Of a stretch of DNA of 28,650 nucleotides, positions 17,386-27,472 are shown piece by piece (position 1 is the stretch's first letter; the number at the start of each line of letters is the position of its first letter). A model generated the notes under the pieces. That model was not told the DNA's origin. It saw only the letters and a program-made list of their open reading frames with translations, and searched no databases. The position numbers and the translations under genes are program-made. Source of the DNA: a virus (taxonomy: Duplodnaviria > Caudoviricetes); the IMG/VR virus record IMGVR_UViG_3300032225_002032, positions 1-28,650 of that record; one strand, given 5' to 3'.

Positions 17386-17667
17386 GTACAGAAGTACAGA
17401 AATTATGCCCAAAACAGGCCGTTTCTGTACCGTTTCCCCGTTGTTTCCGGTGTCTCTGGTCTTTCTCTAAATCGTTTATATCATAGGTTTTACGGCTATT
17501 TCCTTCCGGCTTTTTCCAAGGGGACAAGGGGTTTCCTAAACCGGGGGTCGTAGGTTCGAATCCTACCGGGTGTATTTCCGCAAGTCCTTTGAAAACAATG
17601 GTTTGTGGCGAGTCTACTGCGAGTTGGTTTGTCCGTCAAATGGCCGAAATTTCTGTACGGTACAGAA
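17386..17667. repeat. GTACAGAA repeats, probable integrase arm-type sites flanking attP
   Basis: GTACAGAA at 17386, 17394, 17660; reverse TTCTGTAC at 17423, 17651. Confidence 0.7.
17530..17574 (+). mobile_element. attP core: 3' half of tRNA-Arg(CCT)
   Basis: Anticodon loop TTCCTAA (17533-17539), T-arm GTAGG-TTCGAAT-CCTAC, acceptor 3' strand CGGGTGT-A; no 5' half; next to the integrase. Confidence 0.88.
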
Positions 17668-17670
17668 TCC

Positions 17671-18846
17671 ATGCTACCTAAGCTTTGCAGACATCGATCA
17701 AAAGGCCGGGCGTATGTCACGCTTCCCGGCAAAAAAGTCATCTATTTGGGCGCTTGGCCCGATGCCGATAATCCGCCTCCGCCCGATGTGGTTGCGCAAT
17801 ATAAGGTGATTGTGGGGCGGCTTTTGACCGATCAGCCTCCCCTGGCGGAGATGGATGGACGGGTTAGCGTTGAGGAATTGGTGGGCCTGTTTCTGGAAAG
17901 CCAGCGGGAAAGCATCGACTTTTCCGCCTATCGTGGGGCGCTTTATTCTGTACTGATTCTGTACGGATCGATTCCGGCGGAGGAGTTTGGACCAAACAAG
18001 CTGCGAGCGGTCCAGGAATATTTGGTCAAAACTCCGACCCGGGGAAAGCCCCGCACCCGGTCCGGGATCAATATCACCCTGCGCCGGATTCGCCGGTGCT
18101 GGTCCTGGGGCGTGAGCCGGGAGCTTGTCCCCGAATCGGTGAGCCGGGCGCTCGGCACGGTCGATCCGTTGCGGTTACGAAAATCCAGCGCGCCCGAATC
18201 CAAACCCCGCAAGGCCGTCAATCCGGAAGTGGTCGAGAAAACGGTTCCCTTTTTGCCGCCGCACATTGTCGCCATGATCCGCCTCCAACAGCTCACCGCG
18301 ATGAGGCCCGGCGAGGTGACCCAGATCACGACAGGCGAAATCGATCGGCGTCAAAAGGGCGCATGGTTTTATTGTCCCGAGCAGCACAAAAATGCCCACC
18401 GGGGCAAGGGCCGGGCAATTGCCCTGGGACCCAAAGCGATCGAGATCATCACGCCATGGCTGCGGGCCGATCCGGAAAAACCGATCTTTTCGCCAGCGGA
18501 ACGGGTGGTCTTTTTGCGGGAAACGCAACGGGCCAAACGCAAATCCAAAGTCCCGCCCAGCCAGGAAGAGCGCAAGGTCGCCGACCCCAAACGCAAGCCC
18601 GGCGAAAGCTACGACACCCGCTCCTATGGACGGGCAATCATGCGGGTTTGCCAGCGGGAGGGGATCGAGATCTGGTCGCCCAACCAGCTCCGGAAATTGG
18701 CCATCAACTTGGCCGCCAACCGGGGCGGCAAACAGCGCGCCCAGGCATTTGCCGGACATCTCGATTCGGAAACCACCGAGCGCTTCTATCTGGAACAGGA
18801 TCGGCAATTGGCAGCCGAGGCGGCAAACCTCGTTGAGGGGCGATAA
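17671..18846 (+). CDS. int: Tyrosine integrase
   Basis: Catalytic set AMRPGE(R), HK, PNQLR, AGH, TTERFY(Y); N-terminal arm-binding segment GRAYVTLPGKKVIYLG. Confidence 0.93.
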   Translation: MLPKLCRHRSKGRAYVTLPGKKVIYLGAWPDADNPPPPDVVAQYKVIVGRLLTDQPPLAEMDGRVSVEELVGLFLESQRESIDFSAYRGALYSVLILYGSIPAEEFGPNKLRAVQEYLVKTPTRGKPRTRSGINITLRRIRRCWSWGVSRELVPESVSRALGTVDPLRLRKSSAPESKPRKAVNPEVVEKTVPFLPPHIVAMIRLQQLTAMRPGEVTQITTGEIDRRQKGAWFYCPEQHKNAHRGKGRAIALGPKAIEIITPWLRADPEKPIFSPAERVVFLRETQRAKRKSKVPPSQEERKVADPKRKPGESYDTRSYGRAIMRVCQREGIEIWSPNQLRKLAINLAANRGGKQRAQAFAGHLDSETTERFYLEQDRQLAAEAANLVEGR

Positions 18847-20046: not shown

Positions 20047-20250
20047 ATGCTTGTGCTATCACGGAAGGTTGGCGAGCGGATCAAGGTCGGCGAAAACATT
20101 TGGATCTCCATCGAGGAGGTCGACCGGGGCAAAGTCCGCGTCGGCATCGAAGCGCCCAAGGCTGTCCCGATTTTGCGGGAGGAGCTGAGCGCCTCGGCAT
20201 TGGACGAGGGGCCCGTCGAAACGGTTTGGGGTCGGGTCGAGATCGGGTGA
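20047..20250 (+). CDS. csrA: Carbon storage regulator CsrA/RsmA homolog
   Basis: MLVLSRKVGERIKVG...KVRVGIEAPKAVPILREEL. Confidence 0.95.
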   Translation: MLVLSRKVGERIKVGENIWISIEEVDRGKVRVGIEAPKAVPILREELSASALDEGPVETVWGRVEIG

Positions 20251-20253
20251 TTT

Positions 20254-20376
20254 GGCAGGAAGGGCATGGCTCGGTTGGGACTGGCATGGCGGGGCAGGGT
20301 TTGGCAGGCAGGGCCTGGCAAGGCCTGGCAGGGCGAGGCATGGCGGGGCGGGGCTAGGCAGGGCTAGGCAGGGTGA
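20254..20376 (+). repeat. GGY-NN pentamer array 1 (2 units, 9+14 pentamers); putative guide ncRNA
   Basis: Strict 5-nt period GGC/GGT/GGA + 2 variable nt; phase reset by GGCA at 20254 and 20303. Confidence 0.9.
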
Positions 20377-20420
20377 TAAGGCCAGATGGGGCGTACCGGG
20401 TTCGAATCCCGGCTTATCAG
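20374..20420 (+). ncRNA. tRNA-like minihelix (acceptor stem + T-arm) at the 3' end of array 1
   Basis: TGATAAG/CTTATCA 7-bp stem stacked on CCGGG-TTCGAAT-CCCGG; only 15 nt where D and anticodon arms would be. Confidence 0.7.
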
Positions 20421-20461: not shown

Positions 20462-21037
20462 ATGAACATCAGGGTTACATTGCAAGGCACAAGTCCACTT
20501 CTCATGCACAATCCACAAATGGTGGATCCGGAATTCGAAATCAATAGGGAGATCAAGGCCCTTACTTCGAAACGGAAAAAGACCGATGAGGATCTGAAAA
20601 ATATTGCCCGGCTGGAATGGTATGGCGGGCTGTATCAAAGCGACGGCGTGATCGTCCAACCGACCGCCAAAGCCAGAAAATGTATTGTCAACACGGCCCG
20701 AATCAGCAAGCTCGGCAAGGCCGTCGAGCGGGCCATCAGTTTTTCCGATGTCTATGTTCCGCTGGTTTACCAGGGGCCAAAAACAATTGACGAAATCTGG
20801 AAGTCTGGCAACTTTGTCTCCCGGCTCTCGGTCGGAGTCAATGGAAAACGGATCATGCGGGTCCGCCCTTCGTTTTCCCCATGGGCCATGCAAATTGATG
20901 GCCTGTTTGTCGAGGATGCCGGTTTGAACTTTGACGAACTGGTCCGGGTTGTGGAGCTCGCCGGTCAGGTCGAAGGGATTGGGGATAATCGAATCAACGG
21001 CTATGGCCGCTTTACAGGAAAGGTAGTGCAACTTTGA
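20462..21037 (+). CDS. Stand-alone RAMP/Cas7-like protein (191 aa)
   Basis: N-terminal IRVTLQGTSPLLMH strand, RVRPSF..W, C-terminal Gly-rich loop GIGDNRINGYGRF; SD AGGGG. Confidence 0.75.
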   Translation: MNIRVTLQGTSPLLMHNPQMVDPEFEINREIKALTSKRKKTDEDLKNIARLEWYGGLYQSDGVIVQPTAKARKCIVNTARISKLGKAVERAISFSDVYVPLVYQGPKTIDEIWKSGNFVSRLSVGVNGKRIMRVRPSFSPWAMQIDGLFVEDAGLNFDELVRVVELAGQVEGIGDNRINGYGRFTGKVVQL

Positions 21038-21531
21038 TACGCCAAAATCGCTTTCGCAATACAAGAGCCTGTGGCAGGTCTGATTCTCAGGTGATCATTG
21101 ATCTGGTGCGCAACGCCGACCCAGGAAAGATTTTTACCTTTGACGAACTGACAACCGTTTTGGCCGAAGGGTCCGCACGGCCCTGGGATCTTGATGGCAT
21201 TCGCGCAGCCACCTCCCGGGCAACCTTTCGGCTTTCCAGGGAGACGCAGCGAGCCCTGGTCAGCGTGCGTGGAGTCGGCTACAAGGTGGCTCAGGCCAGC
21301 GAGCATACGATGGTCGCCAACGACCGCAAGCGCAAAGCGGATCGGCAACTCTCCAAAGGGTTGGCCGTCCTGCAAAATGTCAGGTGGGAGGAGATGGACG
21401 AGAACCAGCGCAATGCCCATCAGGGTCAACTCATGGTGATGAGCGCCATTGTCTCCCAACAAAAAAGTTTTGAGCGTCGTATGTCCCGGGTTGAAGACGC
21501 AATCAAAAAAGGTCTCCGACCTGCTGAATAG
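21034..21531 (+). CDS. Winged-helix-like/coiled-coil partner of the RAMP protein
   Basis: TTG start overlaps the RAMP stop; FTFDEL...RL....LVSVRGVGYKV resembles an OmpR-type wing. Confidence 0.6.
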   Translation: MIRQNRFRNTRACGRSDSQVIIDLVRNADPGKIFTFDELTTVLAEGSARPWDLDGIRAATSRATFRLSRETQRALVSVRGVGYKVAQASEHTMVANDRKRKADRQLSKGLAVLQNVRWEEMDENQRNAHQGQLMVMSAIVSQQKSFERRMSRVEDAIKKGLRPAE

Positions 21532-21840
21532 GCAGGCGCGGCTGGGCGAGGCTCGGCGAGGCGCGGCAGGGCCGGGCGAGGCGGGCGGGGCAGGGCGGGG
21601 CAAGGTTCGGCAGGGACTGGCGTGGCCGGGTTCGGCAGGGCATGGCTTTACTTGGCAGGCGGTGCAGGGCGTGGCGAGGAAGGACGGGGTTTTGCATGGT
21701 CAGGCAAGGTTTGGCAGGCACGGCACGGCCTGGCCGGGCCAGGCTAGGTACGGCAAGGCGTGGCTCGGCGAGGCTTGGCAGGGCAGGCAGGGCGTGGTTT
21801 GGCCAGGCATGGCAGGGCGTGGCGCGGCAAGGCAGGGTGT
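21531..21840 (+). repeat. GGY-NN pentamer array 2 (5 units: 9, 13, 11, 13, 11 pentamers); putative guide ncRNA
   Basis: Same 5-nt period; delimiters GGCA/GGCG at 21531, 21580, 21654, 21713, 21782; ends in a T tract. Confidence 0.9.
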
Positions 21841-21870: not shown

Positions 21871-22542
21871 ATGAGTACGGAAATTATGGAAGTTGGGCAG
21901 GCGGGGCAATCGCCCAAGGAATTGATGAGGCTGTACGAGTCGAGGGCGGAATCGTGCCGGGAGATCATCCGGCAAACCGCCCAGAACATCGGGGGCCGGG
22001 ATCACATCCGGGTCGAGGGGTGGCAGGCATTGGCGGCGGTTTCCGGGTGCTCCGTCTCCGTCGCATTGGTCGAATCGGTCGAGGGGGGCGTGCGCTCGGT
22101 CGCCGAGGTCAAGCGTCAATCTGACGGGACCGTCCTTGCCTCGGCGGAGGGATTTGTTGGTGATGATGAAATGATGTGGCGCAAGCGGCCTTTGTTTGCG
22201 CGTCGGGCGATGGCCCAGACCCGGGCGACCAGTCGGGCCTGTCGGGTGGCGTTTTCGCATCTGGTCGTTTTGCTCAAGGATCCAAACCTTTCCACATGTC
22301 CGGCGGAGGAAATGGACACCGAGCCGCACGACCAGCCACCACCGCCGCCCGTGCGAAGTATTCAGGCGGGGCCCAGCAAGGAGGACTGGGAGAAAATTGC
22401 CGGGCTGATGCAGGCGACCGGCACGACCGGGGAAGACCTGGAAAGGAAGTTTGGGCCAGCAAGGCAGCTTAGCGCCGCAAAGGCCCGCGAGGTGATTATG
22501 TGGTTGCAAGCAATCGACAAGGAAAAGGAGAACGCGCGATGA
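21871..22542 (+). CDS. Putative single-strand annealing/recombination protein
   Basis: SD AGGAGG; VEGWQ, AMAQTRA.SRA.R and PAEEM motifs; early-region position. Confidence 0.5.
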   Translation: MSTEIMEVGQAGQSPKELMRLYESRAESCREIIRQTAQNIGGRDHIRVEGWQALAAVSGCSVSVALVESVEGGVRSVAEVKRQSDGTVLASAEGFVGDDEMMWRKRPLFARRAMAQTRATSRACRVAFSHLVVLLKDPNLSTCPAEEMDTEPHDQPPPPPVRSIQAGPSKEDWEKIAGLMQATGTTGEDLERKFGPARQLSAAKAREVIMWLQAIDKEKENAR

Positions 22543-22904
22543 GTGGCAATTGGCAAAAGGTGGATCCGCCAAAGATCCTGTTGGGGACGACCAACAAGGA
22601 TGGCAAGCTGCATGTGGAATATCGCAGCAAAGCCGGGAAACTGGGTGTTTATCTGTTGCTGCGGGATAGTGAGTTTGTTGACCGGGAATCCGGGGAAATC
22701 CGCAAAAGGTGTCTTTTGGGGTTTGTGGATGGCAGGAAGCTTCCCGATGGAAAAGATGGTTTTTGGGTGGACCGGTCCGTCGTGAACTTTGGCAAGGAAC
22801 AGGAAGAAACCGCACCCGCACCCAAGGCCGATTATTGGCCCAGGGCGATTCAGGATCCACAACCAGACACCGGAATCATCCAGGATGACGGGTTACCATT
22901 TTAG
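22539..22904 (+). CDS. Hypothetical protein with SSB-like acidic tail
   Basis: Ends QDDGLPF; beta-rich. Confidence 0.55.
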   Translation: MSGNWQKVDPPKILLGTTNKDGKLHVEYRSKAGKLGVYLLLRDSEFVDRESGEIRKRCLLGFVDGRKLPDGKDGFWVDRSVVNFGKEQEETAPAPKADYWPRAIQDPQPDTGIIQDDGLPF

Positions 22905-22946
22905 CAAAAAAAGGACATCAAAAGAGCGACACCAAAGGAGCGAAAT

Positions 22947-23306
22947 ATGGGGAGTTGGCGTGATCAGGACCGGGGCGCACGGTCTTTTTATTTCAGGGAG
23001 AGGCAGACCCACGAGCGCCTCGACAAACGGGATGCCGCCCTGCCACCTATTGGCGAGATCGATCCCGAATCGGGAAAGCTGGTCGTCGGGTACAGGAGCC
23101 GGGCGGGGAGACTGGGCAAGTATTTGTTACTAAGTGAGCGGCAGGTGGTTTACCAGGGTGAGCAAATTTCCTTTGTGACCCTGGGATTTATCGGTGGCAA
23201 GCCGATGTCCGATGGGAAAACGGGATTCGATGTGCGAGGCGACCAGATCCTTCGCAGCCCCGAGGAACCCGAAGCCCGAAGCGTTTTCGAGGAGGACAAC
23301 CCATGA
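22947..23306 (+). CDS. Hypothetical protein, paralog of 22539-22904
   Basis: SD AAGGAG; shares GKL.V.YRS.AG.LG.YLLL and LGF..G....DGK.GF.V. Confidence 0.7.
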   Translation: MGSWRDQDRGARSFYFRERQTHERLDKRDAALPPIGEIDPESGKLVVGYRSRAGRLGKYLLLSERQVVYQGEQISFVTLGFIGGKPMSDGKTGFDVRGDQILRSPEEPEARSVFEEDNP

Positions 23307-23534: not shown

Positions 23535-24401
23535 ATGGGGGAGGCGAAAGTGAGCAGTTGGATTAAGTTTCGGACCAGCCTGATTAACCATCCAAAAGTT
23601 GTGCGCATTGCGTGCGCAATTTGTGCGCAAGATGTGCGCAGAATGTGCACAGCAATTGGCGCAATTGTGCAGACATGGGCCATGGCGGATGCCCACGCAG
23701 ATGGGGAATGTCTCCCTGGAATGTCTTTTGAAGCGCTCGATTTGCTCCTTGGACTGCCAGGATTTGCCAAAGCGATGGCCGAAGTTGGTTGGTTGGACGA
23801 GCGGGACGGATCGCTCTATCTCCCGAATTACCAAGAACATAACGGAAATACGGCCAAGCGTCGGGCGCAAAATAACACCCGCATGAAATCTGTGCGCAAA
23901 GTGTGCGCAAAGTGTGCGCAAGATGTGCGCAAGTGTGTGTGTAATTTGTGTACCAAGAGAGAGAGTAAGAATAAGAATAGTAATCCTAACGGATTACTCC
24001 CCCTAACCCCCACGAAGAAGTCGGCGAAGTTTGATCCTGTTGTCGACATCGAGGCACCGTTTGCATCCAAAGAATGGGCGGAGGCGTGGGCCAAATGGTG
24101 TGCGCATCGCTGTGAGCTCAGGAAGCCCCTGACCCGGCAGGCGACCGAATCGCAGCTTGCCGAGTTGGCCCGCATGGGTGAAGAGCGAGCCCTTGCCGCA
24201 ATCCATCACAGCCTGCGCGGAGGGTGGCAGGGGATCTTTGAGCCCAAGGCGGAGAAGCCCGAAGGATTCGGTGCGGGCTATGGTGTACGGCCCAGCGCCA
24301 CCGAACGGGCCGCCCAGACCGCCGAGCGCCTGATCAGCGGCAAATCCGCGATCGCCAACCAGATCTTTGCCGAACTGCAAGCGATGGAGATGGGCCAATG
24401 A
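23535..24401 (+). CDS. Phage replication initiator (replisome organizer-like)
   Basis: WIK....L..HPKV N-terminus, GF.KAM.EVGWL, C-terminal W..W..HR..LRKPLT...GWQGIF; internal iterons. Confidence 0.75.
   Translation: MGEAKVSSWIKFRTSLINHPKVVRIACAICAQDVRRMCTAIGAIVQTWAMADAHADGECLPGMSFEALDLLLGLPGFAKAMAEVGWLDERDGSLYLPNYQEHNGNTAKRRAQNNTRMKSVRKVCAKCAQDVRKCVCNLCTKRESKNKNSNPNGLLPLTPTKKSAKFDPVVDIEAPFASKEWAEAWAKWCAHRCELRKPLTRQATESQLAELARMGEERALAAIHHSLRGGWQGIFEPKAEKPEGFGAGYGVRPSATERAAQTAERLISGKSAIANQIFAELQAMEMGQ
23600..23673 (+). repeat. Iteron cluster 1 (11-bp period GTGCGCA)
   Basis: GTGCGCA at 23601, 23612, 23623, 23634; variants at 23645 and 23667. Confidence 0.8.
23891..23983 (+). repeat. Iteron cluster 2 plus purine/AT-rich tract; probable origin
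   Basis: GTGCGCAA at 23892, 23903, 23914, 23925, then AGAGAGAGTAAGAATAAGAATAGTAA. Confidence 0.8.
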
Positions 24402-25172: not shown

Positions 25173-26228
25173 ATGAAATTTGAGCCAGCGAAAATCCTTC
25201 CGATGGTGGCCGCATGTGCCGCAATTGCCGAAAGATCGATGAAAGCCAAAGCCATCGCCGTGCAGGGCAATGCCGAGTTTTTTGGCGCAACCGACCAGGA
25301 AACGACGCTTGTCAGCGCCCGCTTTGATGTTGCTGATGATTGGGTGCTGGTTCCGGCCAGCAAGCTTTTGAGCGCGCTTAAATCGATTGGCAGCGCCGAG
25401 GCGGATTGGGAGCTGTTGGCCGAGTCGGTCGTGATCACGGCAAAGGGCGTGCGCTATAGCCTGCCGATCATGCCGAAGGGGGATTTTCCGTCGCTGGATG
25501 CGATTGGAGCCGAGGATCCCGAAAGTCGCAAGCGCTACGGGGTGCAGGCCGCGCCGCTGATCGAGGCGATCGAAACGGTCGCACCGTGCGTGGCGACGCA
25601 GAGCGCCAAATATACGATGATGGGCATTTGTCTGGAGCTCGGCCAAGTGGTCGCAACCGATGGGCGCAGGCTGGCCGTCGCCAAGTATCCGGTCGAAGGC
25701 GTGCAGGCATTTTCGGCGGTGATTCCGGCCAAGCTGGGCCCGATTCTACGCGGGATATTTGGCGACGCCGAGGAGACGATGACGCTCTCGATTGGGACAA
25801 ATATGGTTCACTTCTTTGGAAGTGAGGCGATTTTGTCAACCAGACAAATCGAGGGAAAATATCCGGATTGGTCGGCGATCATGCCGCGCATCATCGCCCA
25901 TAAGATCACGACGAATACGGCGGATCTGATCGAGGCGATCCAGCGGGTCGGATTTATGGCGGACCGTGAGGAAAAGCGGGTCAACTTTGCGCTGGGCCAG
26001 GGACAGCTTACCCTGACCGCAAAGACTCCGATCGATGGCGAGGCCTTTGCCTCAATGGATTTTCCCTGGGATGGGGAGCCAATGGAGATCTCCCTCAATG
26101 CGGCGTATCTGTTGCCGCTTTTGAAGGGGATTAAGGGCGAGGCGTTTACGCTGGGGATCAACAGCCCGGGCAAACCGATCGTCCTACAGGGCGAGGGATT
26201 CCAGGGTCTTTTAATGCCGATGTCGTGA
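25173..26228 (+). CDS. dnaN: DNA polymerase III beta sliding clamp homolog
   Basis: ATDQE, DFP, VATDGRRLA, IEGKYPDW, NAAYL, LLMPM motifs; 351 aa; SD TAAGGAG. Confidence 0.92.
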   Translation: MKFEPAKILPMVAACAAIAERSMKAKAIAVQGNAEFFGATDQETTLVSARFDVADDWVLVPASKLLSALKSIGSAEADWELLAESVVITAKGVRYSLPIMPKGDFPSLDAIGAEDPESRKRYGVQAAPLIEAIETVAPCVATQSAKYTMMGICLELGQVVATDGRRLAVAKYPVEGVQAFSAVIPAKLGPILRGIFGDAEETMTLSIGTNMVHFFGSEAILSTRQIEGKYPDWSAIMPRIIAHKITTNTADLIEAIQRVGFMADREEKRVNFALGQGQLTLTAKTPIDGEAFASMDFPWDGEPMEISLNAAYLLPLLKGIKGEAFTLGINSPGKPIVLQGEGFQGLLMPMS

Positions 26229-26678: not shown

Positions 26679-27472
26679 AATTATGTATGCATCACAAGGG
26701 CGAGCTTTGGGCGACGGCAAACAAACTCAGCGAGGAACAACAGAAATTGGTCACCGATAATTTGCCGTTGGCATATCACTATTGCAAAAAAAGGCCGATT
26801 CCTGGCCTTGATCGGGACGAGAACGAATCCGAAGCGCTCTTTTGTCTGACCCGGTCGGCGGCAAATTTCAAGCCCGAACTGGGTTTCCGCTTTGCCACCT
26901 ATGCCTGGAGCGTTTGGCTCAATCATCGAAAAGACGCGCACCGGATTATCAAAATGGAAACGAAGGGATACGGCACAATTCAGGAGCGTTTCAACGGGGC
27001 CAGCATGTGGTTAATCGATCCGGTCGATGCCCAGCCCGGACCAGACCAGATCGCCGCCGAAAAGGACGAGCTTGCCGAAAAACTCAAAACCTTTTCGGTG
27101 CTCGATCTGCGGGCAAAGGAGATCCTTGAGAAAAGGATGCAGGGCAAATCGCTCCAGGAGATCGGCACCGAAATGAACATCACCCGGGAGCGGGTCCGGC
27201 AAATCGAAAAATCGGCTATATATCGGATCCAGTATTTGTCGGGATCGGACATCGACACGGAAAATCCCCTGATCAACGAATACCACGAAATTCGGGAACG
27301 CCGCAACGATGCGACCAAGGAGCATCAAAGGAAAGTCGCCGCCATTAAGGCGATCCGGCGGGAATTTCCGGAGTATGGGTCTGTCAAAATCGCCAAGCAG
27401 GTCGGGTGCTCGGTGAAACTGGCCCGGACGCACATGGCGCTTAAAAAACACAAAAAGCCGGTGACAGCATGA
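26675..27472 (+). CDS. Sigma-70 family RNA polymerase sigma factor
   Basis: Region 2 LVTDNLPLA...FKPELGFRFATYA; region 4 KSLQEIG.EMNITRERVRQIEKSA. Confidence 0.88.
   Translation: MKLCMHHKGELWATANKLSEEQQKLVTDNLPLAYHYCKKRPIPGLDRDENESEALFCLTRSAANFKPELGFRFATYAWSVWLNHRKDAHRIIKMETKGYGTIQERFNGASMWLIDPVDAQPGPDQIAAEKDELAEKLKTFSVLDLRAKEILEKRMQGKSLQEIGTEMNITRERVRQIEKSAIYRIQYLSGSDIDTENPLINEYHEIRERRNDATKEHQRKVAAIKAIRREFPEYGSVKIAKQVGCSVKLARTHMALKKHKKPVTA

Follow-up and report, generated by a model that had tools for sequence, protein, structure and literature searches.

The window analysed here, a stretch of 28,650 nucleotides, is the record of a temperate phage that encodes a terminase, a portal protein, a major head protein and a tyrosine integrase, and the whole of it is found at no less than 99% on one contig of run X1. 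Beyond the integrase gene, two arrays of repeated GGY-NN pentamers flank a pair of open reading frames (ORFs). The features of interest are the following.

17530..17609, plus strand: predicted attP, consisting of the 3' half of tRNA-Arg(CCT) and flank, used for the host-genus assignment.
17605..18846, plus strand: the phage's own tyrosine integrase, which holds no unit D target.
20258..20376, plus strand: upstream array, with units U1 (20258-20306) and U2 (20307-20376).
20375..20420, plus strand: structured tail 3' of the upstream array, with a closing stem and a tRNA T-arm-like hairpin.
20462..21037, plus strand: vipr, 191 aa, RAMP fold, with matches to PDB 36PP, Cas7/Csm3 folds and phrog_4652.
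21091..21531, plus strand: candidate accessory (vap) gene, 146 aa, possibly with a TTG start at 21034; phrog_5926 (unknown function).
21535..21583, plus strand: unit A, 10 pentamers, in the downstream staggered array.
21584..21657, plus strand: unit B, 15 pentamers, one of them with a decayed scaffold; the sister phage L001 shares the 3' end.
21658..21716, plus strand: unit C, 12 pentamers, of which four have imperfect scaffolds; L001 carries an identical NN series.
21717..21785, plus strand: unit D, predicted vrRNA guide, 14 GGY-NN pentamers, of which the first 11 NN are taken as guide and the last 2-3 as junction.
21786..21840, plus strand: unit E, 11 pentamers, then a T run.

VIPR is a CRISPR-related gene silencer published in 2026 (bioRxiv 10.64898/2026.04.26.720920). 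Between the arrays lies the 191-aa ORF, which matches the Vipr of Escherichia phage SUSP1 in PDB 36PP (phmmer E 2.4e-26; profile E 4.4e-66), and its predicted model (pLDDT 93.7) has Csm3 and Cas7 as Foldseek matches. The residues of SUSP1 Vipr that read GGY are named in the structure preprint (10.64898/2026.04.26.720927) as H17, R138, D177, W178 and R179. Four of the five are kept here, with H16, R135, D175 and R177 aligning with SUSP1 H17, R138, D177 and R179; unlike in SUSP1, the position of W178, the G-loop aromatic, is taken by N176. The 146-aa ORF lies in the place expected for an accessory gene, and a tblastn search with it over 50,697 phage records returned three actinophage records and not SUSP1. 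Repeats of 9-16 GGY-NN per unit, with variable NN and flanking vipr, are expected of such loci, and the window holds seven units of 10-15 pentamers whose NN differ between close relatives. Because of the match to PDB 36PP, the Csm3/Cas7-like fold and the four GGY-reading residues, the locus is, judged from its sequence, a VIPR system.

The downstream staggered array (21535-21840) comprises five units and the upstream array (20258-20376) two, each unit overlapping the next by one base. The tail at 20375-20420 folds with a z of -2.2; the same tail is present in L001 and L002, and a similar hairpin in L007 (3 of the 16 loci checked). It gave no ARAGORN or Rfam match, and a host nuclease that matures tRNA might use it as a signal for processing. 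In the sister phage L001, whose Vipr is 98% identical, unit C is kept and another unit stands in the place of D, which indicates guide turnover; VIPR guides thus appear to turn over fast. The NN series of unit C is kept at L001:1736-1794 despite the four imperfect scaffolds, and the neighbouring units are replaced there. The upstream array of L002 (L002:2-285) contains near-duplicate units that differ in few pairs, which suggests duplication and recombination as a source of new guides.

The host of the phage was assigned through attP, independently of unit D. The predicted attP matches the Planctomycetota genome G001 in 59 of 60 bases, G557 in 72 of 80, past the end of the tRNA, and G511 in 48 of 48, and at E 1e-17 only 3 of the 252 genomes of G001's family pass, all of them in G001's genus. 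Relatives of the phage integrase are almost all found in Planctomycetota records (scan of 46 of 64 parts), the top-ranked one being in G001 beside tRNA-Arg(CCT). Since the only family genomes that match the tRNA-Arg attachment site of the phage belong to G001's genus, this genus is its likely host. The genus, represented by five genomes, was defined after the unit D match described below. The G001 record is labelled Singulisphaera, but it falls into the same family as a record that bears the label Limnoglobus, which points to Gemmataceae. A second, 44-nt copy of the tRNA-Arg(CCT) half is present in G001 on another contig (L262).

Other parts of the window may be mentioned here. The phage carries a CsrA-like regulator (20047-20250), a DNA polymerase III beta clamp (25173-26228) and a sigma-70-like factor (26681-27472). 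Repeats of the 11-nt sequence TGTGCGCA at 23584-23662 and 23875-23942, within the replication-initiator gene, are iteron-like, and two adjacent small ORFs at 22539-23306, paralogous-looking and with no Pfam/PHROG family over the cut-off, share a 'YRS-x-AG-x-LG-x-YLLL' segment.

Unit D is the fourth of the five units in the downstream array. Thirteen GGY-NN pentamers lie within 21717-21781, and a fourteenth (GGCA and a shared G) ends at 21785/6, overlapping the next unit by one base; all 14 scaffolds are intact, each being GGC or GGT. The dinucleotides originally read from 21717-21781 were confirmed, with one further AG beyond them, and their decoding as T-T-L-R-[HQ]-Y-T-[KN]-V-S-[DE]-[FL]-[SR] follows directly from the code table. 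The reading of unit D needs one correction, in that the last pairs (TT AG AG) are probably junction rather than guide. Parsing of the window and of L001-L015 gave 62 distinct units. AG is the last pair in 48 of them and TT the last but one in 10, compared with a TT frequency of 5% at internal positions, and in the closest clade the terminal AG is preceded by TT in 8 of 18 units. Because of this bias at unit ends, the last pairs of unit D were dropped and the first 11 searched, and this 11-pair query was fixed before any match was known. The first six pentamers of unit D are absent from all the loci compared. Run X20, which belongs to another study, has a 235-nt contig that aligns to 21703-21795, that is to unit D, with 6 differences in 93 bases, and a D-like unit may therefore exist in a second population.

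As had been noted, the phage's own integrase agrees with unit D in four of the first six pairs; in bases the agreement is 9/22. That unit D does not target the phage itself also held, since the best site anywhere in the window reaches only 14/22. There were no self-target matches on the source contig, and no unit D site was found in the sister records G006 and G007.

The first 11 pairs were searched, with at most three mismatches, in 634 distinct Planctomycetota genomes. These were 5 that carry integrase relatives, a further 400 from the phylum, and 231 from G001's family, which has 252 (all but G637-G657). The search gave one site with two mismatches and eight with three, and the reversed control gave one match. 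The two-mismatch site, G001:C183:5347-5378, was found in the first search, of five genomes, for which G001 had been chosen beforehand because of its top-ranked relative of the phage integrase, and it is the only site with two or fewer mismatches among the 634 genomes. It matches the first 11 pairs of unit D in 20/22 bases and 9/11 pairs. The site lies on the sense strand of a PF00589 ORF, with the skipped base at codon position 3, and spans the catalytic tyrosine, reading ...LARHSDPK-TTLRHYAKLSD..., where the tyrosine is invariant in the family alignment. Pairs 1-6, 8, 10 and 11 agree in both bases, pairs 7 and 9 in one of the two, and pairs 12-13 in neither; with all 13 pairs counted the match is 20/26 bases and 9/13 pairs, which falls short of the published 80% cut-off and lies at the level of chance. 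By the VIPR gap-1 cut-off of at least 80% of NN pairs, unit D thus scores, in wobble phase, 9/11 (82%) if the terminal pairs are junction and 9/13 (69%) if they are read.

The original prediction of a gap-1, codon-phased Planctomycetota site in the integrase of another element is borne out by this single best match. The literal search pattern that came with it, 13 pairs of which at most two are mismatched, fails at the G001 site, where four of the 13 pairs, two of them terminal, are mismatched. As for the claim that unit D guides silencing of a competing element's integrase, the 20/22 site over 11 pairs upholds it for one island only, and over 13 pairs the match is at chance.

No exact 11-pair site was present in genome contigs or metagenome contigs, and no exact 9-pair site in viral contigs. 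The first eight pairs occur in viral contigs at eight loci, which represent three distinct sites, none continuing past pair 8, and six of these loci are one DUF6267/cytidylyltransferase gene; they were set aside as chance matches. Two degenerate scans of viral contigs yielded 5 and 56 loci, the best at 19/22, and none with integrase-like context in the wobble frame; at the 19/22 site, on viral contig L197, the open frame in wobble phase is only 59 codons long. None of the eight 3-mismatch genome sites (19/22) shows the integrase motif of the G001 site, and in seven of the eight an open frame longer than the wobble frame exists; the L178 frame has 140 codons and lies at a contig edge. Versions of the query with gap 0 and gap 2 gave no matches in the five genus genomes. 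The family of the phage's own integrase was likewise considered as the target and rejected, TTLRHY being absent from 47 proteins and the score at most 15/22 at any in-frame position in 80 loci.

Guides U1, U2, A, B, C and E, together with two guides of L001, had only chance-level sites in the genus, and the other six guides of the window had no site on the G001 island. Under the same code unit B reads G-[SR]-G-[KN]-S-[SR]-L-V-R-S, resembling a Walker A motif; it had no site in the 252 family genomes, and the reversed control matched 3 genomes, plus one more match. A shuffle test is circular for D and B, whose regions were fetched for their hits, and was not counted as evidence. The target stretch matched no contigs of four runs (X1, X2, X8, X20), which does not prove that it is absent there. 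A single-query search of metagenome and viral contigs for close relatives of the target integrase found none, and an alignment query found two distant ones.

The element that carries the matched integrase is seen on the 7.4-kb contig C183 of G001, which holds an ORF without family, an HTH_17 (AlpA-type) gene, a DUF3987 gene, the integrase and tRNA-Cys, the last two adjoining each other. A check for flanking repeats found no second copy of the tRNA end on this contig. The families PF00589, PF12728 and PF13148 are the int, alpA and primase set of the PICMI model (PMC10803314). The island resembles PICMI satellites in these three families, integrase, AlpA-type regulator and primase, and in having no structural genes in the stretch seen; it differs in lying at tRNA-Cys and not at fis, and in belonging to Planctomycetota and not Vibrionaceae. 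By gene content and position the island is PICMI-like and not a PICMI member, since PICMIs integrate at fis (PMC10803314). The nearest relatives of the target integrase within the genus, G443:C67 (51% identical) and G540:C42, both lie at tRNA-Arg(CCT), the attP tRNA of the phage, and match unit D in 15/22 and 11/22 bases. Their positions are given below.

L188:224-1638: relative of the target integrase at tRNA-Arg(CCT), in G443.
L190:1-950: relative of the target integrase at tRNA-Arg(CCT), in G540.

We consider it likely that the complex of Vipr and unit D binds, and would thereby silence, the integrase of the G001 island or of a close relative, through the codon-phase 20/22 match at the catalytic tyrosine. 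By analogy with the published VIPR mechanism, the array would be transcribed and cut into unit RNAs, Vipr would coat each GGY, and each NN would pair with two target bases, the third being skipped. Most likely the coated RNA of unit D would then pair with the template strand of the integrase gene and block its transcription. Silencing of the integrase would block excision and keep the island in place during infection. The gene content of the island is satellite-like, and the island would parasitise or compete with the phage; to escape, the target would have to change amino acids next to the catalytic tyrosine. The two mismatches point either to an unsampled close relative of the G001 island as the true target or to drift in this island.

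One alternative is that unit D is a true VIPR guide for an unsampled phage or host locus and that its agreement with the integrase is fortuitous. Unit D has no perfect site, its 13-pair match is of a quality expected 0.9 times in the genus, chance sites of 19/22 exist (eight in genomes and that of L197 in viral contigs), and D is one of seven units, picked after decoding because it looked like a known motif. Across the 634 genomes roughly 0.2-0.8 sites as good as that in G001 are expected (calculated by hand), and one such site is unsurprising by count alone; the weight of the G001 match comes from its location. Within the genus (5 genomes, 24.5 Mb) the expectation for sites with up to two mismatches is 0.0014 under a dinucleotide model and about 0.006 with uniform bases (by hand), and it rises to only about 0.01-0.04 for seven guides, before an integrase, the sense strand and the wobble phase are required. 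Nor is the match a generic resemblance to integrases, since family members at large reach only 9-12/22: at the catalytic position 18 integrases of the same family score in this range, one host-genus relative 15/22 and G001 20/22 (20 members parsed, after removal of one spurious row and of two loci that did not parse). The RH-x4-TTLRHY motif is peculiar to the integrase sub-clade seen in the host genus. Relative P0168, 57% identical to the target integrase, reads TSLRHYAKVSE and has the valine encoded by unit D, and three JGI cluster members read as G001 does at the site. A fortuitous match is accordingly judged improbable. That the array is a decaying or non-functional repeat in which D guides nothing, as the imperfect scaffolds of units B and C might indicate, is very improbable, given that the scaffolds of unit D are intact throughout, that vipr is intact with its key residues, and that L001 has a different unit at the place of D while keeping C, which speaks of turnover.

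The identity of the competitor is a separate matter. We tentatively propose, as a possibility, that this phage has a minimal satellite, the AlpA/DUF3987/integrase island at tRNA-Cys, which is locked in the chromosome by a guide on the catalytic-tyrosine codons of its integrase, and that the two form a helper-satellite pair in freshwater Planctomycetota. Unit D might instead be aimed at a prophage or island of the same integrase sub-clade that competes for the tRNA-Arg CCT attachment site and does not hijack particles. This would agree with the location of the nearest genus relatives, at the attP tRNA of the phage, but these reach only 15/22 and 11/22, and the 20/22 element is found at tRNA-Cys with a satellite-like gene set; we regard such an attachment-site competitor as rather unlikely. 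The confidence in it overlaps with that in silencing of the G001-type integrase, because the integrase target is common to both and only the ecology differs.

If silencing of the island integrase by unit D is correct, the one worked VIPR example against a satellite recombinase, from E. coli, gains a counterpart in a distant phylum, with a tyrosine integrase as the target and a minimal island as its carrier, and the active-site codons of integrases are suggested as a recurring VIPR target. Unit D and the G001 site make a concrete candidate pair of guide and target, and guides of this kind can tie an uncultured phage to both its host and its competitor. Should the satellite interpretation hold as well, VIPR guides would serve to find satellites, and the phages that help them, in phyla without cultures. 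The principle is not new, as two 2026 preprints already describe the skip-every-third-base code with its wobble logic, and also a guide aimed at the recombinase of a satellite; since the code had been published, the target was the open question. The terms 'Planctomyc' and 'integrase' are absent from the main text of 10.64898/2026.04.26.720920, and a limited literature search found no report of a planctomycete VIPR target, which the supplementary target tables of the preprints could hold.

The 1-nt skip rule, wobble alignment, staggered arrays and 80% pair cut-off are described in 10.64898/2026.04.26.720920. With the VIPR systems of that preprint the present locus shares the Vipr RAMP protein, a two-gene operon (here with a candidate vap as the second gene) flanked by arrays, 9-16 repeats per unit, staggered arrays with 1-nt overlap (fig. 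S18 there) and the lack of a self-target. The closest parallel to unit D is SUSP1 vrRNA4 (bioRxiv 10.64898/2026.10.15.759431), which acts on the active-site codons of the excision recombinase of satellite F5 and blocks excision. In both cases a phage Vipr is combined with GGY-NN guides that read codon positions 1-2 and skip the wobble base, and the footprint lies on recombinase active-site codons of a parasitic element, here a putative one. The SUSP1 footprint is upstream of a catalytic serine, the satellites are those of E. coli and carry tail genes, and the effect is experimental, whereas unit D, part of a staggered array, covers the catalytic tyrosine of a PF00589 integrase on a minimal Planctomycetota island and its effect is predicted. 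The match of read bases is 89.2% as reported for SUSP1 vrRNA4 and 91% for unit D over 11 pairs.
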